Virus record (IMG/VR): IMGVR_UViG_2854418831_000003
Coordinates: 15,958-79,957 of that record
Strand: one strand, 5' to 3'
Length of the DNA: 64,000 nt
From: a virus
Taxonomy: Duplodnaviria; Caudoviricetes
Numbering within the stretch: the stretch's first letter is position 1; each line of letters begins with the position of its first letter. Shown here in pieces: positions 4,958 through 43,535 of this stretch. A program made the translations under genes and the position numbers. The notes under the pieces were generated by a model. That model saw only the letters and a list, made by a program, of their open reading frames with translations, was not told where the DNA came from and searched no databases.

Positions 4958-5128
4958 TTATGCCTCCCTTTTTAGAGGGCAATCTTTTCTGCACCCCTCT
5001 TCCGGGCATACAGGTCTTGTGCCCAATGCCGCGCAATGGTAATGCTCTCCCTTTGAAAAACTCAACATACAAGCGGTGCAATTTATTCCCTTTTCATCAG
5101 AAAAACTTAAATTCAAGATAGCTTTCAT
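4958..5128 (-). CDS. Small Cys-rich (6 Cys) putative metal-binding protein
   Basis: 56 aa with CTAC...C...C...C...C; ATGA overlap with the stop of the upstream gene. Confidence 0.55.
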   Translation of the reverse strand: MKAILNLSFSDEKGINCTACMLSFSKGEHYHCAALGTRPVCPEEGCRKDCPLKREA

Positions 5129-6084
5129 CTCTTTTTCTCCTCGTGGTTTTTCGCTGCGTCGCCTGTCAGGCTGATCAGCGTGCTCTTTGTGCCGCTGTCC
5201 AGTACCATACGCCACCGGAGCGGAATCTTTTCATATCCATACAGGGCACCGGCCAGTCCGCCGGTAATAGCTGCGATTGTGTCTGCGTCTCCTCCCAGGT
5301 TGGCAGCTTTAACAACGGCCGCCTCAAAGTTCTTTGTACTTCTCAGGCAGTGCAGGGCGCAATGCAAAGAGTCAACCACAAAACCGCTAGGATTCAGGTT
5401 TGCCGGCTCTGCTTTTCGGCTGTATCGTGTGCCCCTTGTAATGCCGTTCAGGCCGTTGCATAGTTTTTGCACCGTATCTGCATGGTGCATGATTAAATAG
5501 TATAGCATTTTTGTATAAAGCTGGCAAGCCTCTGCGCTCAGGTCGTCCCAGTGCGTCAGGCGTCCGATTCTGTCCGCAACCTCTATGGCTCTGCTCTCGT
5601 CTGTATAGTACAAGCCTGGGTATACGGTACGCATCAGAGCGCCATTGCCTGCGCTTCTGTTCCCGTTCTGCTGCGCTGTCAGCTGTGCTGCCTGCTCCCA
5701 TAGTTCATATGGTGCCAGGCCCTTGCAATTTTTCAGTTCCGGCCGTCTCAGCATCATCTGCAGTGCGTTTGTGATCGCGCTGCGGCAGGTGCCGCCTATA
5801 TCTTTCGGGCCACCCATGGCCCACTCTGCAAAGTGCTTGCCCGCCCACGGCTCCGGATTATCCGGGTGCATTGCTACGCCCAGGGCTGCTGCGATTGTCA
5901 TTTGCGTGTCGTCGGTAACTTCTCCCGGCTTTACGTTCAGCCATCCGCCGCCGATCATTTCTTTCACGGTTCCGTACTTGTGCTGGATTTCCTTTGCGTT
6001 CATAAATTCCAGCGGGGCGCCCAGTGCGTCCCCTACTGCTACACCAAATAATGCGCCGCCGATTTTGTTTGCTAAATTCGTCAT
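5125..6084 (-). CDS. ADP-ribosylglycohydrolase (DraG/ARH family)
   Basis: GVAVGDALGAPLE, TDDTQM, AGNGALMR and GGDADTIAAITGGLAGA motifs. Confidence 0.93.
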   Translation of the reverse strand: MTNLANKIGGALFGVAVGDALGAPLEFMNAKEIQHKYGTVKEMIGGGWLNVKPGEVTDDTQMTIAAALGVAMHPDNPEPWAGKHFAEWAMGGPKDIGGTCRSAITNALQMMLRRPELKNCKGLAPYELWEQAAQLTAQQNGNRSAGNGALMRTVYPGLYYTDESRAIEVADRIGRLTHWDDLSAEACQLYTKMLYYLIMHHADTVQKLCNGLNGITRGTRYSRKAEPANLNPSGFVVDSLHCALHCLRSTKNFEAAVVKAANLGGDADTIAAITGGLAGALYGYEKIPLRWRMVLDSGTKSTLISLTGDAAKNHEEKKR

Positions 6085-8853: not shown

Positions 8854-9180
8854 TTATCGGCCGCCCTGCGTGTTATTATCTGTTTTTTTCAACTGTGCAA
8901 TAGCCTGGATCACTTTATCGTACCCAACCATAGAAGCAAGCCAGGACAGCAGCACAAGTGCAATTAAATATACCGCCATCTTGTCGTTGATCTGCGTCTC
9001 CGTCAGAATCAGGTACCCGGCGCCTACTAGGGCGGACAGCACTACGGCCACGCCACCGGCCAGAAAATTAGAGTGGTACTTCACTCTCATTTCGTCCAGC
9101 AGCTTCTTAATGCCCTCGGTAAACAGTCCCGTGAAAATAGATACGATCATCAGTCCCAGTAAAAAAATTTCTAAAGTCAT
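8854..9180 (-). CDS. Holin-like membrane protein
   Basis: 108 aa with 3 hydrophobic segments, directly upstream of the endolysin. Confidence 0.7.
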   Translation of the reverse strand: MTLEIFLLGLMIVSIFTGLFTEGIKKLLDEMRVKYHSNFLAGGVAVVLSALVGAGYLILTETQINDKMAVYLIALVLLSWLASMVGYDKVIQAIAQLKKTDNNTQGGR

Positions 9181-9190
9181 GCTTTTCTCC

Positions 9191-9601: not shown

Positions 9602-9611
9602 TGGTACCGCC

Positions 9612-10166
9612 TCACTTTCTGCTACCCATCAGCTCTGCGATTTTCGCATCTTCGTGCATTGGAATTACTTCCAGTGCCCTCATTTCAGGTTGTACAGTCG
9701 TGTGCATGTGCCCGTCGCCGTTGGCGTTCTCATACTCTTTAAACATGGACCAAAATGCGTCTGCCTCCATTTCGCTCCATGCCTGCATGGGGTTCTTGTC
9801 CGGGTTCGTAAAATACCGGTGCGATTGTAATAGTCTGTCACGGAGCTTGCTGCGTTCTCGACTGGTGTTCTCTTTTTCGATTTTGTCCAGCTTTTCCTGC
9901 TGCTTTTCCATGCCCTCTTTCAACTCTGCAATACTGGTATTAAATTGCTGCTGGATTTCAAGGCTTTGCTGGTGCCATGTTGGATACATGTTTACCTGAT
10001 CCATTACTTTCTTAAACTGCTCATTTTTTTCCTTTTCATGGATCGCCTTATCAGAAAAATACTTTTCCACTTTCCGGTAACACAACCCCAGGAATACAAG
10101 CGCCGCAATTACGGTTATGGCCCAGCCTATGCTATAATCTCCTAGCAATTTGATTAAATAGTCCAT
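9612..10166 (-). CDS. Membrane-anchored coiled-coil protein
   Basis: N-terminal transmembrane segment and coiled coil; 184 aa. Confidence 0.65.
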   Translation of the reverse strand: MDYLIKLLGDYSIGWAITVIAALVFLGLCYRKVEKYFSDKAIHEKEKNEQFKKVMDQVNMYPTWHQQSLEIQQQFNTSIAELKEGMEKQQEKLDKIEKENTSRERSKLRDRLLQSHRYFTNPDKNPMQAWSEMEADAFWSMFKEYENANGDGHMHTTVQPEMRALEVIPMHEDAKIAELMGSRK

Positions 10167-10200
10167 TTTTTCGTATTCCTTTCTGCTCCATTTTCTGCAA

Positions 10201-10243
10201 AATAAAAGAACCGGCCAGGGCCAGCTCTGCGGTCAATTCTTTT
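10201..10243 (-). terminator. Intrinsic terminator downstream of the DGR RT
   Basis: AAAAGAA...TTCTTTT stem-loop with T-rich tail. Confidence 0.45.
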
Positions 10244-10251
10244 CACGGGTT

Positions 10252-10422
10252 TCATTCTTCTATGCCTCTCTGCAGGTCTGCCGCCTGCTGCATCATTGCC
10301 AGTTCTTCCTCTTCGATCATACCGTGCTGCAATAACGTGGCCGCCAGGCGGTCAATAACATTCCTTTGCAGCTGTATAATTTCCGACTGGGTTTCCAGTA
10401 CCTCAGCAATACACTGTTTCAT
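10252..10422 (-). CDS. Small helical protein overlapping the RT 3' end
   Basis: 56 aa MKQCIAEVLETQSEIIQLQ...; AGGAG SD; below the ORF-track cutoff. Confidence 0.5.
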   Translation of the reverse strand: MKQCIAEVLETQSEIIQLQRNVIDRLAATLLQHGMIEEEELAMMQQAADLQRGIEE

Positions 10423-11560
10423 AGTCAAGTGCTCCTGTTTCTCCTATTTCCATCACGTTTATGATCTGCTCCTCTCCGTTATCATCCGCATGGGTCAATA
10501 CAAATTCGTCCAGCAATTTTTCCTTAAATTTCTTACAATCCACATGGCTCAGCATGGCCAGGTAGCTCTGCATGGTTGCGTTTGCTTCTTTGAATGTGAT
10601 CAGGTTGTCATGGTAGTCCTGGCGCGTTTTCCGGAGCGTTCTCTTCATCCGAAGTGTTGTGCTCTTTCTCAGGATCACATGGTCGTTATAAATCACATAG
10701 CCCACAAACTCGCACCCAACCCGCACCGGCCGGAGTGCTGTCTTGTTGTTGAAATTTAAGTGCAGCCGCTCCTCTAAAAACTGTGTCATTCTTCTGCCGT
10801 ATTCTTTCAGGCGTTCCTTGTCATTGTCTAGGATTATAATGTCGTCCATGTACCGGATATACCGTTTTATTCCCAGTACCCTCTTACAAAACTGGTCAAG
10901 TGGATCCAGATACATGTTCCCCAGCATATGGGACAGGCCGCCGCCGATAGGTATTCCTAAATCATACAGCATTTGCTCCTCGGTAATTGTCAGCTGGTTT
11001 GCATCCAGTGGCATACCAAACGGAACCGCATCATTGTTTATGTAATACCCTAACAAGTCAACGGTTCGCGGATCATCTATCTTTTTCCTGCAAATATCCA
11101 TAAGTATTTCATGGTCAATGCGGTAAAAGAATTTTGCAACATCAAACTTGTAATAATACCATTCAGTTCCGGACGTCCTGGTTTCTCGCATCCAGGTATA
11201 AAGCTGTTCCATGGCTGCCAGCTGCCCGCGTCCCTTTACGCACGCATAGGTATGTTCTATGAACGTCCGGCATATTTTAGGATTCAGCACGTCATATATT
11301 GCCCGCTGCACCACTTTGGACCAGTAGTCAATAAATATAACTTTCCGCACCTTTGGCACGTATACATAAAAGCTGTGATATTCGACTTTTGGTACCTTTC
11401 CAGCCCTCAACAGAGTGCTTATTTCTTCCAGGTTTCCCTCTCTATTGTCGTAAAATCTCAGCCTCTCCGTGTTCTCCCTTTTGCCCTTTGATACGTGGGT
11501 ATCTGCGACCATTAGTGTGTGAAATGAGGTTATTTCATAATATACGTTTCTAATTGTCAT
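10403..11560 (-). CDS. DGR reverse transcriptase
   Basis: YYYKFDVAKFF, GIPIG, YIRYMDD, EFVGY motifs; adjacent to TR and avd. Confidence 0.95.
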   Translation of the reverse strand: MTIRNVYYEITSFHTLMVADTHVSKGKRENTERLRFYDNREGNLEEISTLLRAGKVPKVEYHSFYVYVPKVRKVIFIDYWSKVVQRAIYDVLNPKICRTFIEHTYACVKGRGQLAAMEQLYTWMRETRTSGTEWYYYKFDVAKFFYRIDHEILMDICRKKIDDPRTVDLLGYYINNDAVPFGMPLDANQLTITEEQMLYDLGIPIGGGLSHMLGNMYLDPLDQFCKRVLGIKRYIRYMDDIIILDNDKERLKEYGRRMTQFLEERLHLNFNNKTALRPVRVGCEFVGYVIYNDHVILRKSTTLRMKRTLRKTRQDYHDNLITFKEANATMQSYLAMLSHVDCKKFKEKLLDEFVLTHADDNGEEQIINVMEIGETGALDYETVYC

Positions 11561-11777
11561 ATTTTTTTACAGTGGTGCAGGTTTCGCTGTATTCTACTTC
11601 CGGATGGGCCAGCGGCTCCGCTTTCGCAAAACATAACCCACGCACAAGGGACTCCCCTTGGTGCCATCACTGCTGTTTTCCTTTTTCGCTCATTGTAAAG
11701 CGCGGGGACGAGATCCTTTATCCCCCTGCACTGCCAGGGCGTCCGTGGGCGCTCCTGTATCTGGCGTATGGGGGTAG

Positions 11778-11896
11778 AGCGGAGCGCCAGCCGATGTTCA
11801 CGTTCACGTTGCCGCGGTTCGTCCAGTTGCCGTTACTGTAACCGACACCCGCGTTCGTGCCGTTGCCATAGTTGCCACCGGAGTTGAACAAGCGCT
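11778..11896 (-). repeat. DGR template repeat (TR), 119 bp
   Basis: Matches 12373-12491 at 107/119 positions; contains 10 AAC codons in the target frame. Confidence 0.96.
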
Positions 11897-11917
11897 ATAT
11901 CCCATTCCCTACGTTAT

Positions 11918-12289
11918 TTATTTTTTAACGCTCGCCATCCATCCGCCGAGCATTCTTCCTATCTCATTTACCTTTTCGCTCCATTGCTTATATTTCTTGA
12001 AATCTATATATTTCAACCTGTATGAAAGACGAACGTATTTTCTCAGCTTGTCAATTTCCACATCCAGCTCCTGCAAAGTAGTTTTCTTGTAATACTTTTT
12101 ATTTGCTTCAATGGTTCTTTCCATTGCCTGGTCCATACATCGCTTTATGTCTGCCGCTAAAACAAATCTTTCATACTTTGGATACGCATTTAGTACCGGA
12201 TAGGCGTATAACATCATATCTTCAATTTTTCCTAAAATCAGGAGGGGATCTCTGTCCCCATCCTGATTTTCAATCTGTACCTCTTCCAT
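11918..12289 (-). CDS. avd: DGR accessory variability determinant
   Basis: 123 aa four-helix-bundle pattern YPK.ERF.L...I...LQELDVEI..LR...NEIGRMLGGW. Confidence 0.92.
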   Translation of the reverse strand: MEEVQIENQDGDRDPLLILGKIEDMMLYAYPVLNAYPKYERFVLAADIKRCMDQAMERTIEANKKYYKKTTLQELDVEIDKLRKYVRLSYRLKYIDFKKYKQWSEKVNEIGRMLGGWMASVKK

Positions 12290-12342
12290 GTTCCTCCTGC
12301 ATCTAGTTGGCCTTATCGGTCCGCTATCGCGTCCCTATCAGA

Positions 12343-13443
12343 TTACAGGCCAACAGATTCCAGATCCACATAAGCGGAGCGCCAGCCGATGACCACGCTC
12401 ACGCTGCCGCGGACCGACCAGATGCCGGTACTGTAACCGACACCCGCGTCCGCGCCGTTGCCATAGTTGCCACCGGAGTAGAACAAGCGCTCGTCTGCAA
12501 CGTTATTGAACCACAATCTGTCGTCGTCATAATCAGACGCTTTTGCTCCGTCTACCGGCAGTAAGCCGTATGCTCTCAGCACTGCCTTTGCAGCGTCGGA
12601 AATGTCTGCGGAACAAGTTAAAGCTCCCAGCGCGCAACTAAAGTTCTCAGAGGTCTTTGTAATGGTTTTACACCACTGGGCGCCGCCAGTTCCTGTTGCG
12701 TCAATCTTAATACTGTTCGCGGTTGTTCCGTTTCCATCCGGAGTAATAAATGCACCGGTGGTTGCGTCAATGGCTTTCCATGCGGTACTTGTCGCTGTCT
12801 GCGGGTTGTCGCTGTTGGCGCCGTTATTGTTTTCAAGTAACTGCAGCTCTCCTTTTACGGTGCGGAGCGCTCCGGTCCACTCAGAAACATTTCCGTTCAG
12901 GTCCCAAATTCCATCAGGCTGTTTATTGTGTGACCAGGTCAGCGGGCCGGTACCGGTTAAAACATGGTAAATTTTTCCTGCATCTGTTCCGCTTCCATAG
13001 GTCGCCGGAATAGCCTGCTGCAGCGTCTCTCTGCTGTCCTTGCCATAGTTATTGTTTCCCCATGGCTGGAAGCCGTTCTTTTTACACCAGAGCATAATTG
13101 CGGCCCACTCTGCCTTAGTCATCATGTGCCAGCCTTTTCCCTTAGATTCACAATATCCTCTGGCAGTGTCCCAGGTAATATTTACAGTCGGATCCTGGCC
13201 AGGCAGGGAGTACGCACGGCCATTATTTACAATGTTCTGGTATTTACTGATCCAGATTCCCGGTACCTCTTTACCATTCACGATAAAGGCTGGGTGTGTG
13301 CTGTCTCCGGCGCCGTCGATCACGTCGCTCATTTTGAACTTAGGCACGTAAACCATAACGGACGGGATTCCCTTGTCGTCATAAATCAGCTTGTTATTAG
13401 GTGCTACCATTTTCAGGGCAAATTCTGCTAAATCGTACTGCAT
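12343..13443 (-). CDS. DGR target: C-type-lectin/FGE-fold putative receptor-binding protein
   Basis: HMMTKAEWAAI, GIWDLNGNVSEW motifs; C-terminus is the VR ending GWRSA; sits at the distal end of the tail module. Confidence 0.9.
   Translation of the reverse strand: MQYDLAEFALKMVAPNNKLIYDDKGIPSVMVYVPKFKMSDVIDGAGDSTHPAFIVNGKEVPGIWISKYQNIVNNGRAYSLPGQDPTVNITWDTARGYCESKGKGWHMMTKAEWAAIMLWCKKNGFQPWGNNNYGKDSRETLQQAIPATYGSGTDAGKIYHVLTGTGPLTWSHNKQPDGIWDLNGNVSEWTGALRTVKGELQLLENNNGANSDNPQTATSTAWKAIDATTGAFITPDGNGTTANSIKIDATGTGGAQWCKTITKTSENFSCALGALTCSADISDAAKAVLRAYGLLPVDGAKASDYDDDRLWFNNVADERLFYSGGNYGNGADAGVGYSTGIWSVRGSVSVVIGWRSAYVDLESVGL
12373..12491 (-). repeat. DGR variable repeat (VR), 119 bp
   Basis: 12 differences from TR, all at TR adenines (6 A>G, 5 A>T, 1 A>C); diverges from TR after GGCTGGCGCTCCGCT (IMH/IMH*). 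Confidence 0.96.
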
Positions 13444-32029: not shown

Positions 32030-33328
32030 TTATCGTCTTGTTGCCTCGTACTCATGTACAAGGTCAGGGTTCTGTACACATGCAGCGTCAATGGATTCTG
32101 CATAGCTCAGGGCGGCGTTGCTCTTGCGGATTTCTTCCGCTTTCTTTTCGATCTGGCTCCATGCGTCAGTGCCTCCTGTGGCTCCTACGCCTCTTTTGCC
32201 AACTTCTCCGAAAAGTCCAGATTTTTCTACCGCTGCCACTGCTCCGTCAAGTACGCCGATCATGTCGTCGTATGCAGTGCCGCCTGCTGCCTGCAGTGCC
32301 TTTAATGTCGGGACCAGTTCTTCCGGTTTCTTGCCGATGATCTCGTACTTCTTCGCAACGTTGTAAAGTTTTTCCTCCTGCGCTGCGTCTGCCTGCTTTC
32401 TCAGTGCGATCAGTTCAGCTGCCACTAACGGGTGCAGGCCCTTGTAAATATCTTCGCCTGCTGCCTGCTGTCCTGTTGCTCCCTGTGCGCCCTCAGCGGC
32501 CGCTCCTGGGGTTTCTACTACTCCGGTGCCCGCTGCCTTGCCTACGCCCTCCGGCGCTGCTCCTGCGCCTGCTCCTGCGCCCTCAGCTCCATCCTCAACA
32601 CCATAGCGCTTTTTAAGTTCTTCAAACGCCATGCGGTCTGTTGCTGTCATGTTTGCCTCGTTGAATTTCATGTCAGTTTCTCCTCCTATAAATTTCTTTG
32701 TTTTGGTTTTTCCGTTATCTTCCGGCGGTGTCTCCCCGCCCTCCTGTTCAGGATCCTCTGTTTCCGGCGGCTGCGGTTTGCCTGTCGCCTTTTCAATCAT
32801 CCCTCCCAGGCGGTCAACGGTTTCCTGCATGTGCTCTACGCTCACGGCACCAGCTGTTTTTACAATCTGTGCCGTTTTACCTGCGCCCCAGGAAGTAACC
32901 AGGCCCTTGATGGCCACGTCAAACTCGTCAATGCTCTGGTTCATCAGTGCGGCCTTGTCCGTTACTTCTTCGTCCCGGATAATGCTGCACAAGCTGTTTT
33001 CCAGTGCAAAACACACATCCCAAATTTCATCAGTAATGCGGCGGAGCTTGCGTTCTTCCATCTTGTCATTGAATGTATCTGCTTTTTCAATGTCGGCCAC
33101 TGCGCTGTCAATGTCTGCCTGGTCCAGCTTCAACGCCTTGCCAATGGCAGAAAAGAACTTGTGCAGGCCGCTTTTTGCTGGTGCCTGTTCCGGATTCTGG
33201 CCCGTCGGCTGTTCTTCCGGTTTCCCGCCGTTTCTCTTATACAGGGCAACGTGCGCGTGCTGGTTTGCGCCAGCATCCACCAGGCTAACCTCTGTTACTT
33301 CCAGGTCTTTCAGCTTTGTCTTTGCCAC
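32030..33328 (-). CDS. Scaffold protein with an N-terminal protease-like motif
   Basis: LEVTEVSLVDAGANQHAH N-terminus, long low-complexity coiled region. Confidence 0.7.
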   Translation of the reverse strand: MAKTKLKDLEVTEVSLVDAGANQHAHVALYKRNGGKPEEQPTGQNPEQAPAKSGLHKFFSAIGKALKLDQADIDSAVADIEKADTFNDKMEERKLRRITDEIWDVCFALENSLCSIIRDEEVTDKAALMNQSIDEFDVAIKGLVTSWGAGKTAQIVKTAGAVSVEHMQETVDRLGGMIEKATGKPQPPETEDPEQEGGETPPEDNGKTKTKKFIGGETDMKFNEANMTATDRMAFEELKKRYGVEDGAEGAGAGAGAAPEGVGKAAGTGVVETPGAAAEGAQGATGQQAAGEDIYKGLHPLVAAELIALRKQADAAQEEKLYNVAKKYEIIGKKPEELVPTLKALQAAGGTAYDDMIGVLDGAVAAVEKSGLFGEVGKRGVGATGGTDAWSQIEKKAEEIRKSNAALSYAESIDAACVQNPDLVHEYEATRR

Positions 33329-33394: not shown

Positions 33395-33862
33395 TCACTC
33401 TGCTACGGCTCCGTCGTCGTCCTCAACTTCTTCCCGGATCGCGGTTCCGCCAATGGAGAACATGCTGTATTCTCCACTTTTTACTTTCTCCCATACGTCA
33501 TCATCAGTGACGCGGAAGCCAATCCACCAACCAACCGGCAAGGTGCCGGCGGCCAGTCCCATTGCTGCCTGCTTTTCCTCAGTCAGCACAACGCTTTCCA
33601 CCATGACTGCGGTTCCTGTTCTTTCGTGCATTTCCCCGCCGTCTCGGTACAGCTCTGCGAATTTATAGGCTGCGGCTTCCAGGGTTTCCGGGTCGATCAT
33701 GTCCTCCTGCAGGTCAACAACCTCATTGCCGCCCACATCTACGGACACATTGGCCCACCCAAATACAAGCCGCTTGTCCTCGTCTACTTTTTGAACCTTA
33801 AAGCGCCCCTTTTTCTCAACTGGCTGCGCCCGGCTCTTAATAATGTCACTGAAAGTCTGCAT
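33395..33862 (-). CDS. XkdF-like putative prohead serine protease
   Basis: KVDEDKRLVFGWA...GEMH...VES...WEKVKSGEYSMFSIGG. Confidence 0.85.
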   Translation of the reverse strand: MQTFSDIIKSRAQPVEKKGRFKVQKVDEDKRLVFGWANVSVDVGGNEVVDLQEDMIDPETLEAAAYKFAELYRDGGEMHERTGTAVMVESVVLTEEKQAAMGLAAGTLPVGWWIGFRVTDDDVWEKVKSGEYSMFSIGGTAIREEVEDDDGAVAE

Positions 33863-34008: not shown

Positions 34009-34431
34009 TTAAGTGTCCGTGCGGTGTCCTTTTCGCCTGTTCTCTTCCATCTCCCAGGCTCCAATTTCTGCCACGCGGCTGTTTGGCCAGTTCTTCCGGT
34101 ACCAGAAATGCAGATCTGCTGTATTCTGGCAGCACTCAGCAATGTCCTTGCCCTGCGCGATCCACTTCCAGGTTTCTTTCCGGAATGTCTTAATATCCAG
34201 TGCAGAAAATTTATAGGTGCCGCCTCTGGCACCCATTACACTGTCATTACATTCAAACTCAAAATAGTCCCCGGTGTCCTTGATCACTTTTCCGGTCAAG
34301 GCCCATATACCGGAATCAGGTACCGCAAAATGCAGGCGCCCGTCCCGTGGATCCACAATAGGCTGTACGGCCACATTAAACATGCCAGGCATGTGCGGCT
34401 GTTCAAACCAGTATGCTTTTCTATAATCCAT
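34009..34431 (-). CDS. Hypothetical protein, candidate MuF-toxin immunity protein
   Basis: 140 aa; TAATG overlap with the MuF stop. Confidence 0.65.
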   Translation of the reverse strand: MDYRKAYWFEQPHMPGMFNVAVQPIVDPRDGRLHFAVPDSGIWALTGKVIKDTGDYFEFECNDSVMGARGGTYKFSALDIKTFRKETWKWIAQGKDIAECCQNTADLHFWYRKNWPNSRVAEIGAWEMEENRRKGHRTDT

Positions 34432-37400
34432 TACAGTTCACTCCCTACGGTTATAAATTTTTCAATATCAATGCCGTTAATATCCATTATACCCCGTGCT
34501 CGAAGTTCACTCAACAGGTGCTGCCTTTCATATCTGCTATTGCACATGATTTCTGTAAAATATCGGCTGTCTATTCCGTTTCGGAACATAATTTCATTAC
34601 TTCCAGCAAAACTGCTTTCCATGTTCTTGACAAACTGTTCAGGGCTTGCCCCGTATTTACTTATATCTGCAACTTTTCCAAACTTATCCCCACCAAAAGA
34701 GTAATAGTCTGTACGTTCCAGGACTGCGGTACTCATTTTTATCTGGTAGTCTCCCGCTACACTGGCGTTGGAAAACTTTCGCTTTGCTTTCTGTGCGCTT
34801 CCGGTCACAAGTCTGGTAAACGCGTTATCAGCTCCGCCGGTTCCCATATCAGAGTACATGCTGGCACCAGCTGGCTGCTGTATGCCCTGCTTGATTCTGC
34901 TCATGGTGGACGAAATTCCGCCGCTTTGCAAAATTTTTATAACGTCGCCCTCTCTGGAAACGCTATGGTAAACATACTTTGCACCGGCCTTTTCCAGGTC
35001 CTTTGCAAGTCCAGGCACCACATAGGTTATATAGCCGTTGTATTCGCTCTGGAGCTTCATACTGGCCAGCTGCACCACATTGATATTTTCCTGGGCGATT
35101 ATCTCGTCCAGTTTACTTACCAGTCTGCTGCCTGCCAGGTCTTTCAGTTCGTCCACACGGCCAGGGGCTTGTGACCACACAAGCCTTGCCTTTTTCAGGG
35201 TTTCCTCTGCTGCTGCCGTTGGCGTCCTGGCTACTTCGTCCAGGCCTACCTTTTTCAGCAGCTCCGTGGCTTTTTTGGCGTCCGCTATGCCGTCTCCGCT
35301 GCTTCGAACACGGATTCTAAAATACCCGTCCCAGGAATGCAGGCTTTGGCCGCTGTACAATTCAAAGGACGCATACTTTGGATCATAGGAATCCAGGTAG
35401 GTAACAACCCCGTGTATGTTTGCTTGAGTTTCAACCAGTGTGTTGCTGGTCCATGCTCTTGCCGTCGGGGCCGTGGTTTCAAAGCTCATGTTGATACGCT
35501 GCGCTGGGACCGTCGGGTTTGCCCCGTCCATCCTCTGCAGCACATCATCCCAGGCGCTAGACCTCAGCTTTCCGGTAATCTCATAGTGCACGTCTCCGTC
35601 TATGATCATACGGCGGGCGCTCAGGTTCATGCCCTCAACCTTGTCCGCGTCGCTCCATACCGCCTGCCCCTGCTTCGGTCCTGGGTGTATCTTGTCAAAA
35701 TCTGTAAATACATCCTCGGCCGTTTTGGTCCCTGGAGGCAGGTGCCCGGTGTTGGTCGCTGCCGGTGCTTTCGGTGTCGCCTTGGCGTTTCTGGCCGCCT
35801 GGTTGGCCGCCAGTCTGTCCCGTACATCCTTGCTGCACTGTTTGGCCTTTACCGGGTCGGACAAGCTGTCAATGAGCTGTTGCTTGTTCATGTTGTTGCA
35901 ATAGGCAATGTTTTGGGCCTTGGCCATCTGCAGCAGATCTGCCTTTCCCATCTTTTTCAGCGCTGCCGCATCATGCGTGGCTGCCTGGATGGTCTTGGCC
36001 GTGTTCTGCGCTTCGTCCGCCCACACAAAAGCTGCCTGTTTTTTACCGGTTCGCTGGGTCAACAGGTCCGTGTAAAATGTCCGGTATGTTTCCCGGAGGT
36101 TCTGCTTTCGCTCCACAATGGCATCCAGCAGCTGCTCTGCATCCTTTCCCTTGCCTTTCAGGCTTTCAGCATAGCCCCGGAATATTTCTCTGTATTCCTT
36201 GTCAGGTATTGCCTCGACCCGTTTTATATATGCCAGGGTGTCCTGCGGGTTTAGATCCAGCTCATTGTTGGCATACTTCCGGAAAACAGTGTTGTACAGC
36301 GGTTCTGTTTCGCCATACTTGCTGTTGGGATGGTATGCGTATGTCATTTTTCCGCTGGCCTTGTCGGTAATGTACCGGAAAGACTGTTCTTTGTCTACAC
36401 CGATCAGCTGCCCGCTGGTATCTGTTACAAAATTGCCGCCGTGGCTGTCATAGTTCCCCAGCAGCCAGTCTGTAACATGTTCCCGCTGTATCTGCTGTAC
36501 CTGGTCAGCTGTCAGGCCTTTGGTGCCATACTGCTGCCACGCCTTGAAGTCGAACCCGTTCGGGTCCACGTCAATTTTCTGCTGGTATGCACCAAACTGG
36601 CCGCCTATGTGTCCGGTGCCAACCTTGACGGCCGTGTCCGGATCCACAATGCCCTGCACCTTGTAACCAGCTTCCTGCACATAGGCCCGGAACTCTTCCG
36701 GTGTGCCGCTTTTGGACTGTGCCGGTTTGAAAAGCCATTCCGTGCCGCTGTCATCCTCGCACAAGTGCATTTCTCCGGTACCGCCCAGGTGTGCCAGGCC
36801 TTTGTCTTTCATTCCCTGCGGCATTTGCAAGCTGTCAGGGATGGACGGTGTCGCCGGATCCGGAATGTTTGGCCCCGGTACCTGGCTCTGTGCCGGCTGT
36901 ATTACCGGCGGGGAAATCTCCCTATACTCAACTGCACACCTGCACTGCGGATGTGCCGGTGGCGTCAGCCTTTGCCCTCCAAAAAGTAATTTATTCAGCT
37001 TAAAATTAAAATCGTCGTCTATGCCTATCGTCTGCCCCTCTAACCCGTTACAGATATCACAAACGCCGTCGTCATAAGCTGTTGACCATACCTTTTCCAC
37101 AACGCCCATAAGGCCCTGCGCCTGGGCCATCTTTACTGCTTCATACTCGCCGTGCTGATATGCGAATGCCATTTCTGTCTCCGCTATCATGTTAGCACGG
37201 TACCGGTGCTGTTGCGCTGCGTACTTGGCCGCTGCTTCCTGGGCTTTCTTGGCCGCTGTGGCCTCTTTCATGCCTGGATTATTCTTTAGCAAGGAATCTT
37301 TCACATGATCGTAATAGTTCGCGTTTGCAATAGCCTGGCGCTGTGTCAGGCCTATGCACGGACGTATTGCCCTGGATAATTCCTCCGCGCTCTCCCCTTT

Positions 37401-37850
37401 GCTGTACGCTCTGGCGATCAGGGCGCTCACTGCGTTCTTTTGCTCGGTGCTTATATTCGTTACAAACTCCGCGCCGTGCTCTTGAACCCACTTCGTTACC
37501 CCTGGCCATGTGTGATCAAAGAAAAAACTGTCATGCTGTTCCTGCACGCCCAGGCTTGCTGTTTCCATAGCTTTAACCCATACAGGGGACAGCTTGTCGC
37601 TTACCATCTTGCTATAATCCTGCTGCCACTGTTGGAAAGTGCTTTCGCTCATGTGGCCGTTCATTATAGCCTCGCGGATTTCCTTGTAGGTAATTGCATT
37701 TTGCTGGTTGGTCCATGTGCTATGCAAAATATATGCCGGTTCAGCGGACGCCGCGTTCAGGAAGCTGTTCAGCTTGTTCAGCGCATTTTGTCCGCCCTGG
37801 CTTTTCTTCTTGCCAGTCGCTTTGCGGATCCGTATTTTCTTAAATTGCAT
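34431..37850 (-). CDS. MuF (gpF-like) minor head protein with kinase-like, Rho-N-like and ADP-ribosyltransferase-like C-terminal domains
   Basis: MuF motifs RANMIAETE, VCDIC, PPAHPQCRC in aa 1-310; extra domains described in findings. Confidence 0.88.
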   Translation of the reverse strand: MQFKKIRIRKATGKKKSQGGQNALNKLNSFLNAASAEPAYILHSTWTNQQNAITYKEIREAIMNGHMSESTFQQWQQDYSKMVSDKLSPVWVKAMETASLGVQEQHDSFFFDHTWPGVTKWVQEHGAEFVTNISTEQKNAVSALIARAYSKGESAEELSRAIRPCIGLTQRQAIANANYYDHVKDSLLKNNPGMKEATAAKKAQEAAAKYAAQQHRYRANMIAETEMAFAYQHGEYEAVKMAQAQGLMGVVEKVWSTAYDDGVCDICNGLEGQTIGIDDDFNFKLNKLLFGGQRLTPPAHPQCRCAVEYREISPPVIQPAQSQVPGPNIPDPATPSIPDSLQMPQGMKDKGLAHLGGTGEMHLCEDDSGTEWLFKPAQSKSGTPEEFRAYVQEAGYKVQGIVDPDTAVKVGTGHIGGQFGAYQQKIDVDPNGFDFKAWQQYGTKGLTADQVQQIQREHVTDWLLGNYDSHGGNFVTDTSGQLIGVDKEQSFRYITDKASGKMTYAYHPNSKYGETEPLYNTVFRKYANNELDLNPQDTLAYIKRVEAIPDKEYREIFRGYAESLKGKGKDAEQLLDAIVERKQNLRETYRTFYTDLLTQRTGKKQAAFVWADEAQNTAKTIQAATHDAAALKKMGKADLLQMAKAQNIAYCNNMNKQQLIDSLSDPVKAKQCSKDVRDRLAANQAARNAKATPKAPAATNTGHLPPGTKTAEDVFTDFDKIHPGPKQGQAVWSDADKVEGMNLSARRMIIDGDVHYEITGKLRSSAWDDVLQRMDGANPTVPAQRINMSFETTAPTARAWTSNTLVETQANIHGVVTYLDSYDPKYASFELYSGQSLHSWDGYFRIRVRSSGDGIADAKKATELLKKVGLDEVARTPTAAAEETLKKARLVWSQAPGRVDELKDLAGSRLVSKLDEIIAQENINVVQLASMKLQSEYNGYITYVVPGLAKDLEKAGAKYVYHSVSREGDVIKILQSGGISSTMSRIKQGIQQPAGASMYSDMGTGGADNAFTRLVTGSAQKAKRKFSNASVAGDYQIKMSTAVLERTDYYSFGGDKFGKVADISKYGASPEQFVKNMESSFAGSNEIMFRNGIDSRYFTEIMCNSRYERQHLLSELRARGIMDINGIDIEKFITVGSEL

Positions 37851-39286
37851 TATGGGTCCCTCCCCAGTCTCTTCCTTGCCTCCTCAACGGCCTGCATATC
37901 TTCCTCGGTCACTCCGTCAGGATCTTCCTCTCCTCCGGGGTCAACCGTGCTGCTACGCTGCTGTTGTGGTTTTGCCTGCTGCCTCTGCCGCGCATTTACT
38001 GGCTTTTCTCCTCCCTGTGCCGGTACCGCCGGGGTATCATCTTCCAGGCGCTCAGGCAGGTGTGCTGCTTCTCTCACATAGTCCTCTAACTGGCTGTCTG
38101 GCGTTAATATGCCGACGCCGGTCATTTCCTTTATGTAGTTGGCCAGCTTCTCGATGTCCTCGTCCTCAATGTCTCCGTGCTCCATTCGCGGGTAATCTGT
38201 AATGCCGTTGAAGTGGTCGCCGTTCAGGTTGATCAGACGGGGGATTGCCTGGTTATTAAAAACCTCACAAATAATATCAAGGTACGCGCCTATTGCCATG
38301 GAAAACAGCTCTGTCTTGTCGCTGCTTAGTGCAAAGCTGCCGACGCTCTGGTGCCCCAGGAAAATAAAATCTGCCAGCACGGTCATTGCCATGCGGGTGT
38401 CATATCTCTCAATGATCGCGTTGGTATCAAACTGGCGGCGGCCTCCGGTGCTCAACAGCTGGAACTGCCAGCCGTTCGGAAGTGCCAGCCCCTCGGTACT
38501 GTCTCGGCGCACATTTTTAACAATGGCCTCCATGCCTGCGCGGATGGCTACCATGTCCGGATCATCCGTGTCCCATATGTTCATACCCTCTGGCGCTGTC
38601 AACACCGGGAAGCCAGCCAGATCTCTCTCTATACCGATTCCCTCAATCTCCTGTATGCGGCGCTTGAAGTACCAGGACCGGTATGCGTTCCTCAGTACGC
38701 TGCGCCCCTCCGGGTTGTTCTTCCGGCTCTTTGTCCGGAACAACAGGGCTTTTTCTATCGGTATCGTGTACAGGCCGAAGTTTGGCGGCGGCATCTGTGT
38801 CATGCCGGTCAGGTTGTCATTGTCGTCATACTCCCACTGATAAAGGGTTTCTTGTGCTCTGATAGGCAGCTTGGCCCATCCGATCAGCCCGTCGTCATAC
38901 TTGCTATTTAGGCGGCTGTCCCTATTTTTGCCGCAACGCCGCTTGTACACGATTTCGTGGTAGCTCCACCCGTATGTTAAAAAGGACAAGATTTCCGAAA
39001 TGGTATCTGTCCAGGTGTCCTGCATGTCGTCCATGCAGCTCTCAACAAACTCTGCTGCCTCTTCGTCTGCGTTCTCCGGTCCTCCTGGCTGTATGGTCCA
39101 GTTCGTCTGCCGAATCAGCATTTCAATGGCAAACAGTATGGCGCCGATCACGTCGTCATTGTCCGCCATTTCTCTGTATGTCTCCACGCCTTTACGGCCC
39201 TGGAGCTCTTTCAAAAATTCCTCGTAAAAAAAGCCGCCATAGCGCTTTTGCCCTATGCGGCCGATTTCTCCTGCTGTGGTTGCCAC
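37850..39286 (-). CDS. Portal protein (DUF935/Mu gp29-like)
   Basis: GTG start with AGGAGG SD; NPEGRSVLR..Y..WYFK...IGIERDLAGFP, GSFALS motifs. Confidence 0.88.
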   Translation of the reverse strand: MATTAGEIGRIGQKRYGGFFYEEFLKELQGRKGVETYREMADNDDVIGAILFAIEMLIRQTNWTIQPGGPENADEEAAEFVESCMDDMQDTWTDTISEILSFLTYGWSYHEIVYKRRCGKNRDSRLNSKYDDGLIGWAKLPIRAQETLYQWEYDDNDNLTGMTQMPPPNFGLYTIPIEKALLFRTKSRKNNPEGRSVLRNAYRSWYFKRRIQEIEGIGIERDLAGFPVLTAPEGMNIWDTDDPDMVAIRAGMEAIVKNVRRDSTEGLALPNGWQFQLLSTGGRRQFDTNAIIERYDTRMAMTVLADFIFLGHQSVGSFALSSDKTELFSMAIGAYLDIICEVFNNQAIPRLINLNGDHFNGITDYPRMEHGDIEDEDIEKLANYIKEMTGVGILTPDSQLEDYVREAAHLPERLEDDTPAVPAQGGEKPVNARQRQQAKPQQQRSSTVDPGGEEDPDGVTEEDMQAVEEARKRLGRDP

Positions 39287-39444
39287 TATGACAGCCCTCC
39301 TTTCCGTCCACAAATCTTATACAGCAGCTTCTGTGCTGTCTGTTGTACCTTAACCTGCACGGAGGCGTTTCTGTCCATGTTCTTGCCGTCTCCCTTGCTG
39401 GTCTTATTGTTCCGGTTGATCCGGTTCATCAGCGACAGGCTCAT
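39286..39444 (-). CDS. Small basic hypothetical protein
   Basis: 52 aa, overlaps both neighbours by 1 nt. Confidence 0.45.
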   Translation of the reverse strand: MSLSLMNRINRNNKTSKGDGKNMDRNASVQVKVQQTAQKLLYKICGRKGGLS

Positions 39445-39767
39445 TATTCCCCACCTGCCTCTGCTACCTGGCCATATCCATAGTACATAATACCTGTACC
39501 GCTTGAAATCGTCACGCTGGCCGCTTTCAGGTACAAACAGTTGCCTGCTGTCAAAACCAGGCCGTCAACCGCTGCTGGCGCATCCCAGGCGGCTCCCACT
39601 GTTCTGATTGTCGTATCTGTCAGCGCCTGCACCGCAACAATGTGGCGGTTCTCTGCCTCCGGTTCGTACTTAGTGGCCGCTCCGGTTGCATTGTAAAGCA
39701 TACAACCAAAACCGCCCATGCCGGCGATCATGCTTCCGTTTGCAGCGTTTCTGTTTCCCATTCCCAT
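39444..39767 (-). CDS. Hypothetical beta-rich protein
   Basis: 107 aa from MGMGNRNA, GAGGTG SD. Confidence 0.6.
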   Translation of the reverse strand: MGMGNRNAANGSMIAGMGGFGCMLYNATGAATKYEPEAENRHIVAVQALTDTTIRTVGAAWDAPAAVDGLVLTAGNCLYLKAASVTISSGTGIMYYGYGQVAEAGGE

Positions 39768-39778
39768 AGCCTTGCACC

Positions 39779-41278
39779 TCACTTTCCTCTCCAATAACTG
39801 CTCATGCCGCCCGCTACTGCCTCGGCCGGCGGTCCTGTCTGCGATGGCTTGTCCATCAAATACAACACGGCCTGCACAAGGGCGTCAACCGTGTCTTTGT
39901 ATACCCCTTTCGGGAACATCAATAAATCTTTTTGCAGGTCTGCGACCCATGACGCCGTGTTTGGATCCGGGAAAAATACGTTCCCAGCCTCGAAGTACGG
40001 CGTAACCGATATTGCTCTCTCTTCCTTACTGCCGCGCGGGTTATATGGCACCATTCCAGGGATTTCCTTGTCCAGCACGTCCATGACCGCCGGTCCGTTC
40101 GCCTTATCCTCCACAACCTTTGCCCTGGCCTTTGGCCATTTCGCTGTCATGTCCCGGATAGCTTTTACCGACTGGGTAAAGCTCATTTTGTCATTTACCA
40201 GGTCAAAAACGTATATGTTCGGGCCACTTCTGCCGACCACATAACCGGCAACCTTGGCGCTACCGTCGCTGTTCTTAAATGCAAGGTCCCAGCTCTGTAT
40301 GATCATGTTACAGTGCGGGGCTGTTGTGTAATAGTGCTGCAACCAGGCCTTTTTGAAGACGTTACCGTCTGCCGGTGCCGGCCGCTGCTGCATCTGTCCG
40401 GAATACTGTAAAGAGCCCATGCTCTTTTTCAGTCCGGCCAGAGATTCCTTGTCGTATCGCTGGGGGTTCAGGATGTCCCCCTCTTCCCTTATGAGCTGCT
40501 TGCCGCTTTTCGGGAATGTTATTATTGTCTTTTTCTCTGCCTCAGCCGGTAAACACAAATGTTCATAGCCCAGGTTTTCTGCCAGCACATAGCCGGTCAG
40601 GTCCATTTCATGTAATCGCTGCATAACGATAATGATCGCGCCGTTCTTTGGGTCGTTCAGTCGTGTCTGCAGTGTATTCTTAAAAAAATCTATAGTGTTT
40701 TGCCGCTCAGTCTCACTGTTGGCCTGCGCTGGGTTCTGCGGGTCGTCAACTATAATTATGTCGCCGCCCTCGCCAGTCAGTGCACCACCGACAGATGTCG
40801 AAAACATCATACCTTGGTGGGTGTTCTTAAATTCGTTCTGCCGGTTTACGTCGTCTTTCAATTTTACAATGTCGCCCCAGTTCTCAGTGTACCAGGGAGA
40901 CTGTATAATATCACGGCTCAGTACGTTGTGCTTACGGCTCAGGGAATCACTGTACGAAACCTTAATAAATCTTTTCTCAGGTGCCTGGGTCCAGGCCCAG
41001 CAGGGGAAGCACACCGTTACATTTATGCTTTTCATGTGTCGGGGCGGGATATTTATCACAAGCCGCTTTATTTCCCCGTCCCTAACAGCGTGCAGGTACT
41101 CACATATCAGATCAATGTGCCAGTTCGGTATATACGTGGTACCCGGCTCAATAATCGGCCAGGACTGCTGTATAAACTCCGATAGGGACCGCTCTGCCCG
41201 TTCCCTGCGAATCCCTTTTAACAGGGTTCCTGGGTCAAACTGGCTGCTATTTATGTAGCTTTCCCAGTATTTGCTCAA
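39779..41278 (-). CDS. terL: Terminase large subunit
   Basis: INIPPRHMKS Walker A, IIVDDPQ Walker B, SWDLAFK and DTVDA nuclease acidic residues. Confidence 0.93.
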   Translation of the reverse strand: MSKYWESYINSSQFDPGTLLKGIRRERAERSLSEFIQQSWPIIEPGTTYIPNWHIDLICEYLHAVRDGEIKRLVINIPPRHMKSINVTVCFPCWAWTQAPEKRFIKVSYSDSLSRKHNVLSRDIIQSPWYTENWGDIVKLKDDVNRQNEFKNTHQGMMFSTSVGGALTGEGGDIIIVDDPQNPAQANSETERQNTIDFFKNTLQTRLNDPKNGAIIIVMQRLHEMDLTGYVLAENLGYEHLCLPAEAEKKTIITFPKSGKQLIREEGDILNPQRYDKESLAGLKKSMGSLQYSGQMQQRPAPADGNVFKKAWLQHYYTTAPHCNMIIQSWDLAFKNSDGSAKVAGYVVGRSGPNIYVFDLVNDKMSFTQSVKAIRDMTAKWPKARAKVVEDKANGPAVMDVLDKEIPGMVPYNPRGSKEERAISVTPYFEAGNVFFPDPNTASWVADLQKDLLMFPKGVYKDTVDALVQAVLYLMDKPSQTGPPAEAVAGGMSSYWRGK

Positions 41279-41888: not shown

Positions 41889-43535
41889 TTACTCTTTGCC
41901 AGGGACATTGATGTCCTCAGCAGCTTCCGGCGTTTCTTCCGGATCCGGCATATTTGCCTTTATATTTTCATCATTCAGCTGCACGTATGCGTATTCTTTG
42001 CCGTCCCTGGTGCATGTAACACCAGCATTGCCGGTATAGCTTACATACCGCCGAATAATTCCATCACAATAGGTTGGGCTTAACTCTACCAGCCTGGCCT
42101 GTCTCTCGGTCATTTCTGCGCCGATCAGCGTGAAGCCAGAACCGCCGAACAGGTCCAGGATAATGTCTCCCGGATCCGAGCTGTTCAGTATCGCCCTTGT
42201 GGCCAGCTCCACCGGTTTCTGTGTCGGGTGGAACGTCGCCGTATCTCTTGCCACTTCCCAAACGGCTCCCTGCTTATCTTCCGGGTATAAGAAAACGCTT
42301 TTATCTTCCTGCAGTCTCAGGTACCGGATTTTCTTTCCCTTTGGTACCTTGTCAGAAATAAAAGCCTTGCCTCCTGCTCCGTCAGTTACAACAATGCCAC
42401 CGCTCAGGGTGGTTGCCATGCCTGCATCATCCCGGAGGGTTATCTTCCAGCAAGTGTTGTTGCTGCGATCTCCGCACCACTTGGCCGTATGCCCTGCTTT
42501 CTCTGCATAAAACATAGGCTCAAAGTCTCTCAGGTAATCGGTACCGCTTAGGTTGTGGTTGTTCTTCAACCAAATAAGATATTGCTTTTCTAACAGCCCG
42601 GCCGCCGTCATGGCGTCCTCAAAGTCCCTGCGGGTGTCTGTTGCATGGTAAATGTAAAATGCAGCGTCTGGCTTGCTGTACTTCACGGCGTTCTTAAATG
42701 CCGGAATCAGTAACTTGCCGAGGAGGTCGTCGTCGGTCAGCTCGTCGTTGGCGATCATGCCGTTGTTTTCGATCTGCTGTTTCTGTCTCTTCCCGTTTCC
42801 TCCACCGCCATCCAGGCTTATGCCATACGGTGGATCAGTGTTCACACACTGCGCCAGTTCATCCCCCAGCAGCTTCTGCAGGGTTTCTGGCTTAGTGCTG
42901 TCTCCACAAATCAGGCGGTGCTGTCCCAGGTGCCAAATATCTCCGGCGTGGGTCATAGGAATGTTTTTCGGTGGCGGTACGGTGTCCTCTCCGTTGTTCT
43001 CCGTATCGTCCACGCCTCCCAGGGCGTTGAGCAGATCTTCCAGGTCCTCCTCTGTGTAACCGCTCATTTCCAGCGGTATCTCTCCGGTGTCCATCTGCTG
43101 CAGCATGTCTGCCAGTGCCGAGGTGTTCATTTCGCTCAGCTCTGCCAGGCGGTTGTCTGCCATCAGATCAGCGTACTCCTCTGCCTCCGAGGCATATTCC
43201 TGGTATTCAACAGGCACAACACTGGCCTGCATGGACTGTGCAGCTTCCAGGCGTCCGTGACCGGTCACAACAAAGCCGCTGCGTTTGCTCACTGTAATAG
43301 GTTTCCTCCATCCCTGCCCCTTGATAATGGCAGCCAGCAGTGCGACCTGCTTAGGTGGATGGGTGTTTGGGTTTCCAGGGTTCGGAACCACTTTGCCAAT
43401 AGGTACCAGCTCGTCAAAAGCACAAAAGACCTTTACACCCTCCGGCGTAACGGCCCTTGCTTCCGCTTCGGTCTGGTAGTTGGCCACGTTGTTGAAATAG
43501 TTCTCAACCTCGTCTTTTTTCTTCTTTCTTGCCAT
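41889..43535 (-). CDS. ParB-domain / N6A-N4C DNA methyltransferase fusion
   Basis: PNPGNPNTH...GWRKPI...VVTGHGRLEAA (ParB); DPPY, HPTQKP, LDLFGGSG (beta-class MTase). Confidence 0.9.
   Translation of the reverse strand: MARKKKKDEVENYFNNVANYQTEAEARAVTPEGVKVFCAFDELVPIGKVVPNPGNPNTHPPKQVALLAAIIKGQGWRKPITVSKRSGFVVTGHGRLEAAQSMQASVVPVEYQEYASEAEEYADLMADNRLAELSEMNTSALADMLQQMDTGEIPLEMSGYTEEDLEDLLNALGGVDDTENNGEDTVPPPKNIPMTHAGDIWHLGQHRLICGDSTKPETLQKLLGDELAQCVNTDPPYGISLDGGGGNGKRQKQQIENNGMIANDELTDDDLLGKLLIPAFKNAVKYSKPDAAFYIYHATDTRRDFEDAMTAAGLLEKQYLIWLKNNHNLSGTDYLRDFEPMFYAEKAGHTAKWCGDRSNNTCWKITLRDDAGMATTLSGGIVVTDGAGGKAFISDKVPKGKKIRYLRLQEDKSVFLYPEDKQGAVWEVARDTATFHPTQKPVELATRAILNSSDPGDIILDLFGGSGFTLIGAEMTERQARLVELSPTYCDGIIRRYVSYTGNAGVTCTRDGKEYAYVQLNDENIKANMPDPEETPEAAEDINVPGKE

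Follow-up and report, generated by a model that had tools for sequence, protein, structure and literature searches.

A MuF head protein of a gut prophage carries a predicted PI4KII/HipA-like kinase and a DarT-like ADP-ribosyltransferase-fold domain

MuF polymorphic toxins and MuF-ADP-ribosyltransferase (ART) fusions combine an N-terminal MuF domain, encoded in the packaging module of the phage, with a C-terminal effector and a small downstream open reading frame (ORF); they are abundant in the human gut, and an ART is frequent among their cargoes (PMC5576092, PMC9503650). Polyvalent proteins of phages and conjugative elements are likewise multi-enzyme and virion-delivered, with ARTs and kinases as common modules (Iyer et al. 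2017, PMC5512222). Against this background of already known MuF-ART fusions and polyvalent effectors, we describe a minus-strand gene of the 79,957-bp IMG/VR provirus record IMGVR_UViG_2854418831_000003 (the window analysed here is a stretch of 64,000 nt, bases 15958-79957 of that record), the 1139-amino-acid (aa) product of which joins a MuF domain to a predicted kinase, a probable helix-extended-helix (HeH) motif, a domain termed MID and a DarT-like ART-fold domain. In the coordinates of the window, the gene and its parts are as follows.

34431..37850, minus strand: whole gene, MuF - kinase - HeH/Rho_N - MID - ART fusion protein of 1139 aa (ORF and translation)
36915..37850, minus strand: MuF / SPP1 gp7-type minor head domain, aa 1-312, with a CxxC...HPxCRC motif at its end (Pfam and PHROG)
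36816..36914, minus strand: proline-rich linker, aa 313-345, located after the point where the short-MuF forms stop and before the first strand of the kinase (translation)
36015..36815, minus strand: atypical kinase domain (PI4KII / CtkA / HipA-like), aa 346-612, with K375, E393, D468, H470, N473 and D486 (AlphaFold2 model and conservation)
35859..35969, minus strand: Rho_N / HeH-like motif, aa 628-664 (Pfam PF07498, below the cut-off)
35061..35726, minus strand: MID domain, aa 709-930, composed of an alpha/beta part and a helical hairpin (confident model, without a confident fold match)
34434..35060, minus strand: DarT-like ADP-ribosyltransferase-fold domain, aa 931-1139 (Foldseek, structural alignment, hhalign and conservation)

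The protein shares the layout of the MuF polymorphic toxins, but two differences are apparent. First, its ART has a DarT-like fold without a curated model and is preceded by a PI4KII/HipA-like kinase; the text of Jamet et al. 2017 has no mention of a kinase (PMC5576092). Second, the cargo is a conserved four-part unit and not a variable tip. The likeness to polyvalent proteins extends to giant relatives of 1300-3585 aa that hold the same kinase-MID-ART unit, whereas the ARTs of the described polyvalent proteins are of the H-Y-D Tox-ART-HYD2 type and their kinases are truncated S/T/Y kinases lacking the C-lobe (PMC5512222). A functional model is offered by T4 Alt, an ART that is packaged in the head, injected with the DNA and modifies host proteins; the present protein would be packaged similarly, but Alt is of the R-S-E (VIP2-like) type, is not fused to MuF and has no kinase.

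The gene was singled out in a preliminary description of this DNA, and translation confirms both the ORF at 34431-37850, encoding 1139 aa on the minus strand, and the location of every motif, residue number and nucleotide range quoted there. In the kinase segment these are LGGTG (355-359), WLFK with K375, E393, DWLLGNYDSHGGN (aa 461-473, including D468, H470 and N473) and IGVD with D486; the LKKMGK...NMNKQQLI stretch occupies aa 631-660, and the C-terminal motifs are YVYHSVS with H962, VIKILQSGGISS at 970-981 and NEIMF with E1086. The MuF head domain, previously delimited as aa 1-310, is recognized by Phage_Mu_F (PF04233) at aa 142-307 with 49.5 bits against a cut-off of 29.6, and PHROG head-morphogenesis families span aa 14-310 (E 1e-64 to 1e-32). 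The gene lies directly downstream of the portal gene, which is the position expected of a MuF minor head protein. Phages with portals 65-74% identical have either MuF alone (281-550 aa) or the long form of ~1140 aa, and therefore the cargo after aa ~312 is regarded as an add-on. The genome of Ruminococcus sp. AF41-9 holds a copy of the fusion gene that is 95% identical, and homologues of ~1140 aa are abundant in gut metagenomes, single 90% clusters containing 4823 and 6891 sequences.

The AlphaFold2 model of aa 330-700, which was built on 30 sequences (pLDDT 88.4), has a bilobal kinase fold. Foldseek returned more than 500 protein-kinase-like matches to it, and structural alignment (VIA) placed it closest to PI4KII-alpha (Z 14.6, 231 aa aligned, rmsd 3.8), followed by CtkA (13.2), Fam20C (12.0), HipT (10.1), VPS34 (10.0) and HipA (9.7). 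In the model K375 is on beta-3 and E393 on the long helix that comes next (helix C), D468-x-H470-x-x-N473 comes after the helix of aa 448-463, and D486 follows the next strand pair; the full catalytic set, consisting of the Gly-rich loop LGGTG, the beta-3 Lys, the helix-C Glu, the DxHxxN loop and the Mg-binding Asp, is found on matching secondary-structure elements. The catalytic residues are invariant across 30 full-length homologues. In a set of 46 diverse kinase copies K375 is kept in 41, D468 in 42, H470 in 40, N473 (as N or Q) in 41 and D486 in 41, and the E393 position is variable in the family (E, Q or A).

The fold, the beta-3 Lys, the DxHxxN loop and the Mg-binding Asp are common to HipA and HipT, Helicobacter pylori CtkA and the type II PI4-kinases. 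HipA and CtkA are bacterial protein Ser/Thr kinases, and Gp0.7 of phage T7 is a functional precedent for a phage kinase acting on host proteins. Unlike those kinases, the present domain is part of a predicted virion protein and stays below the Pfam thresholds: PI3_PI4_kinase (PF00454) covers the catalytic loop only (aa 452-491) with 13.7 bits against a cut-off of 27.1 (E 0.06), and HipA_C (PF07804) has no match to the fusion protein in the Pfam scan. Judged by predicted fold and motif, aa ~346-612 form a PI4KII/CtkA/HipA-like kinase outside any curated family, in agreement with the preliminary description, which had proposed a kinase with its key residues intact.

Between the kinase and MID, PF07498 matches aa 631-662 with 21.5 bits (E 2.3e-4), which is under its cut-off of 24.9. 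The model has short helices in this region (628-632, 636-645 and 656-664), and a precomputed PF07498 match is present in many homologues. The Rho-N/HeH pattern noticed earlier is present as a stretch and is shared by the family, but formal membership does not extend to this protein; aa 631-662 are best described as a probable HeH motif.

No named family in Pfam, NCBIfam, PHROGs or PADLOC covers the C-terminal 450 aa, and the ART call therefore rests on predicted structure and profile-profile alignment. A HMMER search with aa 690-1139 gave 973 cluster representatives at E <= 1e-3, and in the 8 representatives examined no Pfam domain covers the MID-ART region. PF03496 (ADPrib_exo_Tox / Alt-VIP2) has no match to the fusion protein at E <= 1, and the DarT model PF14487, which finds 19 DarT genes in 401 Bacillota genomes, has none anywhere in the provirus record. 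For aa 690-1139, 41 sequences with identities of 22-37% yielded a confident model (pLDDT 88.0, pTM 0.87). Its best Foldseek matches in the PDB are DarT1 (E 2.3e-4), the Mycobacterium tuberculosis and Thermus DarT proteins, SopF and Tpt1. When it was compared with 48,161 PDB chains the ten best matches were all ADP-ribosyltransferases (Z 9.8 down to 5.9), unrelated folds reaching at most 5.4. Four DarT entries come first in that ranking, with Z 9.0-9.8 over 163-167 aa (chain residues about 4-207), and are followed by yeast Tpt1 (8.3), CteC (7.1), mouse Tpt1 (6.4) and, at about 6, OspC3, SopF and CopC. In the re-alignment of the Foldseek matches (VIA) DarT reaches Z 10.3, the DarT alignments spanning 157-167 aa, and in the ESM-Atlas a DarT cluster matches the ART model with TM 0.72 over 175 residues. 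The same fold is present in viral models from nucleocytoplasmic large DNA viruses (NCLDV), iridoviruses and baculoviruses and in phage minor capsid proteins.

DarT is thus the best structural match over nearly the whole ART chain (Z about 10), and the two also have the beta-1/helix motif in common (YH..., ...I/L..SGG.SS). When the family was aligned by hhalign with a profile of 13 DarT domains collected from Bacillota genomes, the probability was 69% (P 4.4e-5, 151 aligned columns); VIKILQSGGISS was matched to the helix motif at the N-terminus of DarT, and NEIMF to the motif that contains the catalytic Glu of DarT. E1086 is invariant in 41/41 diverse sequences, as are R985, G1005, R1046, D1048, D1055 and G1058, and S997, D1001, D1008, F1011, R1013 and N1085 are nearly so. 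The active site of Tpt1 is an R-H-R-R tetrad; a Tpt1-type reading, with this tetrad and no Glu, was rejected owing to the invariance of E1086. There are clear differences from DarT as well: DarT is a bacterial anti-phage toxin, whereas here the ART is fused into a phage virion-type protein, there is no HMM match, the DarT His is not conserved, there is no macrodomain or NADAR, and the adjacent gene encodes an unrelated 140-aa protein. MID is paired with the ART in most of the architectures, and its best structural matches reach only Z 4.2-4.9 (CYTH/TTM, YbjN, the SycN-YscB type III secretion chaperone, START and Mediator Med18/20). Both folds that the preliminary description had expected, that of a kinase and that of an ART, were matched by the models in Foldseek, and neither is refuted. 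The sole PDB sequence matched by the family profile of the C-terminal region, ABL1 (E 1.3), was judged a chance match.

To see how the parts are combined elsewhere, we scanned 147 representatives of the MID-ART family with hidden Markov models (HMMs) of the five parts. MID-ART alone is the commonest architecture (75/147); the kinase is found upstream of MID-ART in about 43/147, 19 of these with the Rho_N motif, and a few representatives are MuF-MID-ART proteins without a kinase. The kinase-bearing set includes the proteins of 1300-3585 aa, in which the MuF model finds nothing. Kinase-(HeH)-MID-ART is a recurrent supermodule, also in giant non-MuF proteins, and in many phages the kinase-HeH-MID-ART cargo and its partner gene are kept as one unit down to about 30% identity.

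A related arrangement exists in mycobacteriophages. The head proteins annotated there only as 'minor capsid protein and ADP-ribosyltransferase fusion' (prophiFVLQ01-1 gp56, McProf gp54 and Aikoy gp15) carry an unannotated kinase of the same family (E 1e-41 to 1e-25) followed by a C-terminal ART. That ART, however, is PF03496 (exoenzyme C3/VIP2-like; E 1.5e-15 and 6.6e-8), a clade unlike the ART of MID-ART, and these fusions have no MID, no Rho_N and no homologue of the partner gene described below. One kinase family has thus been joined to two unrelated ART clades, which suggests that the kinase and the ART cooperate functionally. The tandem kinase-ART combination, noted earlier as uncharacterised, remains so, but it is not unique, since it recurs in many phage and prophage proteins and has an equivalent in these mycobacteriophage fusions.

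Three further architectures deserve mention. P0199, a metagenomic protein of 3027 aa, contains a Fam20C-like stretch and four PI3_PI4_kinase stretches (E 5.7e-33) in addition to two ART copies close to the N-terminus, and is an independent architecture combining the two enzyme types. In IMGVR_UViG_3300045988_040479 (L182:7046-10700) the long fusion is divided between two frames, one of 637 aa (MuF-kinase) and one of 650 aa (kinase-RhoN-MID-ART), with the partner ORF still downstream; the split may stem from a frameshift or stop codon within the kinase, or else from faulty assembly. IMGVR_UViG_3300034524_000011 (75,937 bp; L070, L086 and L115) contains the MID-ART locus twice, near 151-13422 and 56597-69868, which suggests a concatemer or a terminally redundant assembly and not two genes.

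Two other genes of the provirus are linked with the ART-bearing form. The first is adjacent to the fusion gene.

34009..34431, minus strand: small partner gene of the ORF140 family, 140 aa, the start of which overlaps the stop of the fusion gene as TAATG

The product of this ORF has no known family in Pfam, PHROG, PADLOC or the PDB, and its Atlas scores are all < 0.8; its best PDB match, Sfi1p (E 0.0065), was judged a chance one. The word-based homologue search found only copies with at least 97% identity, and the wider family was recognized only by reading the loci: it consists of proteins of 103-152 aa, the start of which overlaps or abuts the stop of the MID-ART gene. In a census of 80 loci found via portal alignment, in which long-form genes were counted if they had enough downstream sequence, a member of the family is located downstream of 15/15 long-form genes and at 0 of ~55 short-MuF loci (Fisher p 5e-15, computed as 15/0 vs 0/50). 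It also follows a MuF-MID-ART gene without a kinase (L090) and is present at two divergent non-MuF loci, L104 (E 1.2e-13) and L106 (E 1.2e-6). The family therefore tracks MID-ART, and not MuF or the kinase. An immunity protein, an inhibitor or a chaperone are possible identities for it. The 138-aa gene after the mycobacteriophage fusion has no similarity to the 140-aa ORF.

The second gene lies in the accessory region.

5125..6084, minus strand: DraG-like ADP-ribosylglycohydrolase (ARH), candidate eraser of the ART product (Pfam PF03747, E 1.2e-63)

The nearest solved relatives of this protein are DraG (E 8e-40) and Tri1 (E 2e-28). Both are specific for Arg-ADP-ribose. PF03747 is present in 14/29 viral records with MID-ART, and in 9/10 of those that are at least 90% complete, and in 0/26 portal-related short-MuF records (0/7 near-complete ones); it also occurs in 2/3 mycobacteriophage genomes with a kinase-ART fusion. 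ARH domains are otherwise rare in phages (PMC9503650). This specific co-occurrence with the ART-bearing form implies that the ART is probably not inert, and it is the strongest indirect evidence for an active ART. The pairing of an ART with a DraG-family hydrolase that reverses Arg-ADP-ribosylation resembles Tre1-Tri1, in which a type VI secretion system ART toxin has a DraG-like ARH immunity protein, and DraT-DraG, but in the prophage about 29 kb separate the hydrolase gene from that of the ART, and the adjacent partner is a separate small protein.

In Mycobacterium phage Phrappuccino (L003 / NC_054727, 121553-132449) an ARH gene is located just upstream of the genes for the virion structural protein gp194 and for gp195, a large hypothetical protein in which the kinase domain is found; neither this kinase nor the link with the ARH is annotated in the record.

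What function, then, could such a protein perform? Starting from the domain identities, conserved catalytic residues and gene linkages established above, we propose that it is a MuF-anchored, head-packaged two-enzyme effector that is ejected with the DNA and is accompanied by a coupled partner and a distal eraser; this is the best explanation overall and, in our judgement, a fairly probable one. The fusion would be a MuF protein of the SPP1 gp7 type, located inside the head and associated with the portal, in a temperate siphophage that infects Oscillospiraceae/Ruminococcaceae of the gut; flexible linkers would tether the two-enzyme cargo to its MuF domain. It would be packaged through that domain and would exit the capsid along with the DNA, a model patterned on T4 Alt, the MuF toxins and the polyvalent proteins (PMC5576092, PMC5512222, PMC9503650). 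At an early stage of infection, host macromolecules would be phosphorylated by the kinase and, with NAD+, ADP-ribosylated by the ART, and the HeH/Rho_N segment may act as a DNA-binding motif between the kinase and MID-ART. Host takeover, counter-defence or the exclusion of non-immune cells could be the outcome. The translationally coupled ORF140-family protein would be the cognate partner of MID-ART, which may confer immunity, inhibit the enzyme or serve as a chaperone in the producing cell, and the DraG/Tri1-like ARH would act as an eraser, keeping the modification in check or undoing it, for instance in lysogens. Since DraG and Tri1, the nearest relatives of the ARH, are Arg-specific, the target of the ART is tilted towards protein arginine, which we somewhat favour over DNA or RNA; in this respect the eraser points somewhat away from the nucleic acid considered in the preliminary description.

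Several observations weigh against this proposal. The ART models of Pfam, NCBIfam and PADLOC have no match to the fusion protein and the family profile recovers no solved ART from PDB sequences, so that the ART assignment depends on the predicted structure together with an hhalign probability that is modest (69%). The His expected to contact NAD, H962, is shared by only about 40% of the family, the other members having Ser or Ala, and the family is therefore not canonical H-Y-E; of the DarT/HYE-class assignment made earlier, the ART fold, the closeness to DarT and the position of E1086 on the DarT catalytic Glu stand, and the conserved His does not. In DarT, R51 is the catalytic Arg and H119 or N104 reads the base in ssDNA; the hhalign alignment sets no Arg at the position of R51, and the mapping of R51, Y71 and H119 is unreliable from hhalign alone; judged from conservation in the alignment, R985, R1013 and R1046 could stand in for the NAD+ contact made by the strand-1 His/Arg. 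The distance between the ARH and ART genes also counts against a linked eraser, and the Fisher test of the ARH co-occurrence (p 2e-5 for all records, 4e-4 for near-complete ones) is based on counts that ignore shared ancestry. Finally, nucleic acids are the substrates of DarT and Tpt1, the structural neighbours, which speaks against a protein target, and a protein of 1139 aa has to unfold for passage through the tail.

The target is the point at which the proposal is most open to an alternative. DarT modifies ssDNA bases, and Tpt1/KptA acts on RNA or DNA phosphates. The ART could accordingly block replication or translation by marking host DNA or RNA, or could mark the incoming phage DNA so as to protect it, with HeH/Rho_N holding the enzyme on DNA. 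We regard this as possible, though clearly behind the protein target. The structural ranking, in which the four DarT entries come first and Tpt1 next, the alignment of the N-terminal motif and the catalytic Glu with DarT, the Rho_N-like motif upstream of the ART and the presence of the same fold in baculovirus and iridovirus proteins all point in this direction, and the ORF28-type viral ARTs related to DarT have been proposed to act on nucleic acids (PMC9503650). On the other hand, the eraser is of the DraG/Tri1-like kind, which is protein-Arg specific in characterised members, and, unlike DarTG systems, the 79,957-bp provirus record contains no match to macrodomain PF01661 or NADAR PF08719. 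The failure of PF14487 to match and the poor conservation of the DarT His argue in the same sense. Moreover, the protein-targeting ARTs CteC, OspC3, SopF and CopC also match the model (Z 6-7), and the same kinase is paired in mycobacteriophages with a protein-type ART, PF03496.

It is rather unlikely that the protein is mainly a MuF polymorphic toxin serving the lysogen, in which case released particles would poison relatives lacking the immunity gene, ORF140 would be a classical immunity protein, and the phage's own infection would gain no help. The locus does fit the MuF-toxin definition of Jamet et al. (PMC5576092), which asks for a C-terminal extension, a small ORF (<150 aa) immediately after the gene, and a phage that is temperate and infects Firmicutes: there is an 830-aa extension, the record is a provirus and a copy of the gene lies in a Ruminococcus genome, and the 140-aa ORF overlaps the stop codon. 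In addition, the ORF140 family tracks the toxin-bearing form exactly, and an Atlas cluster of RHS toxins has a similar fold (TM 0.41 by query). Toxin tips and immunity genes are, however, hypervariable, yet here the kinase-HeH-MID-ART cargo and the partner are conserved as a unit; a second protective gene, the ARH, is located in the accessory region; and two enzymes in a fixed order suggest a programmed infection function. The toxin role and the proposed infection effector are not mutually exclusive, and both can hold.

A more specific and rather improbable possibility is that the two enzymes work one after the other on a common substrate. A phosphate added by the kinase would then be ADP-ribosylated by Tpt1/KptA-type chemistry, or phosphorylation would prime the site, and the resulting composite mark, on a host protein or at the ends of nucleic acids, would be erased by the ARH and gated by ORF140; the idea derives from the fixed kinase-ART order in hundreds of proteins and from the pairing with two unrelated ART clades. 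Least probable of all is that the extra domains are catalytically inert, enzyme-derived structural or internal-head parts (DNA condensation, pressure or scaffold-like filler), as might be thought from the ART without a conserved His or a curated model match and from the degenerate state of some second kinase copies in giant relatives, since the residues kept at 22-37% identity are the catalytic positions (K375, D468, H470, N473 and D486; E1086 and several Arg/Asp) and an ADP-ribose hydrolase co-occurs specifically with the ART-bearing form.

In the literature searched, outside which most subscription-journal papers lie, there is no description of this DarT-like ART family or of its MID companion, of a PI4KII/HipA-like kinase in MuF proteins, of the conserved kinase-ART order, of the ORF140 partner or of the specific co-occurrence with an ARH. 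The ART family, with about 970 cluster representatives, has no Pfam model, and the long-form proteins are very common among phages of the human gut. The first minutes of phage infection are set by effectors that the virion delivers, and to our knowledge almost none have been studied outside T4 Alt. The nearest fold, DarT, is a bacterial anti-phage weapon that here appears on the side of the phage. The assembly of the kinase with two ART clades argues that phosphorylation and ADP-ribosylation cooperate, and a MuF-anchored writer with a coupled partner and an ADP-ribose eraser suggests an injected writer that brings its own eraser. The coupled partner and the DraG-like eraser may be a built-in control set, which makes the hypothesis directly testable, and a cultured host with the 95% identical prophage exists in Ruminococcus sp. 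AF41-9. The annotation of the mycobacteriophage 'ADP-ribosyltransferase' head proteins would be corrected as well, as they contain an unnoticed kinase.

The fusion gene belongs to a minus-strand head module with the order TerS, TerL, small ORF, portal, fusion gene, 140-aa ORF, protease, 432-aa gene, scaffold and major capsid protein, and TAATG overlaps occur at both of its ends.

37850..39313, minus strand: portal gene (PHROG portal family, E 4e-102), the stop of which overlaps the start of the fusion gene as TAATG

Some other genes of the module are worth recording. The 155-aa ORF at 33395-33862 (minus strand) matches only the middle part of head-maturation-protease profiles, and the 432-aa protein between it and the scaffold gene (32030-33328, minus strand) belongs to the PHROG family phrog_17741, of unknown function (E 2e-109). 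Between TerL and the portal, a 116-aa ORF (39444-39794, minus strand) is without a PHROG match and has a weak bacterial-collagen-like Pfam match (E 0.002). Directly upstream of the TerS gene, a 548-aa fusion of a ParB-like N-terminal domain and a DNA methyltransferase is encoded at 41889-43535 (minus strand), with matches to phrog_498 (E 1e-120) and to ParB-like families (E 1e-30).

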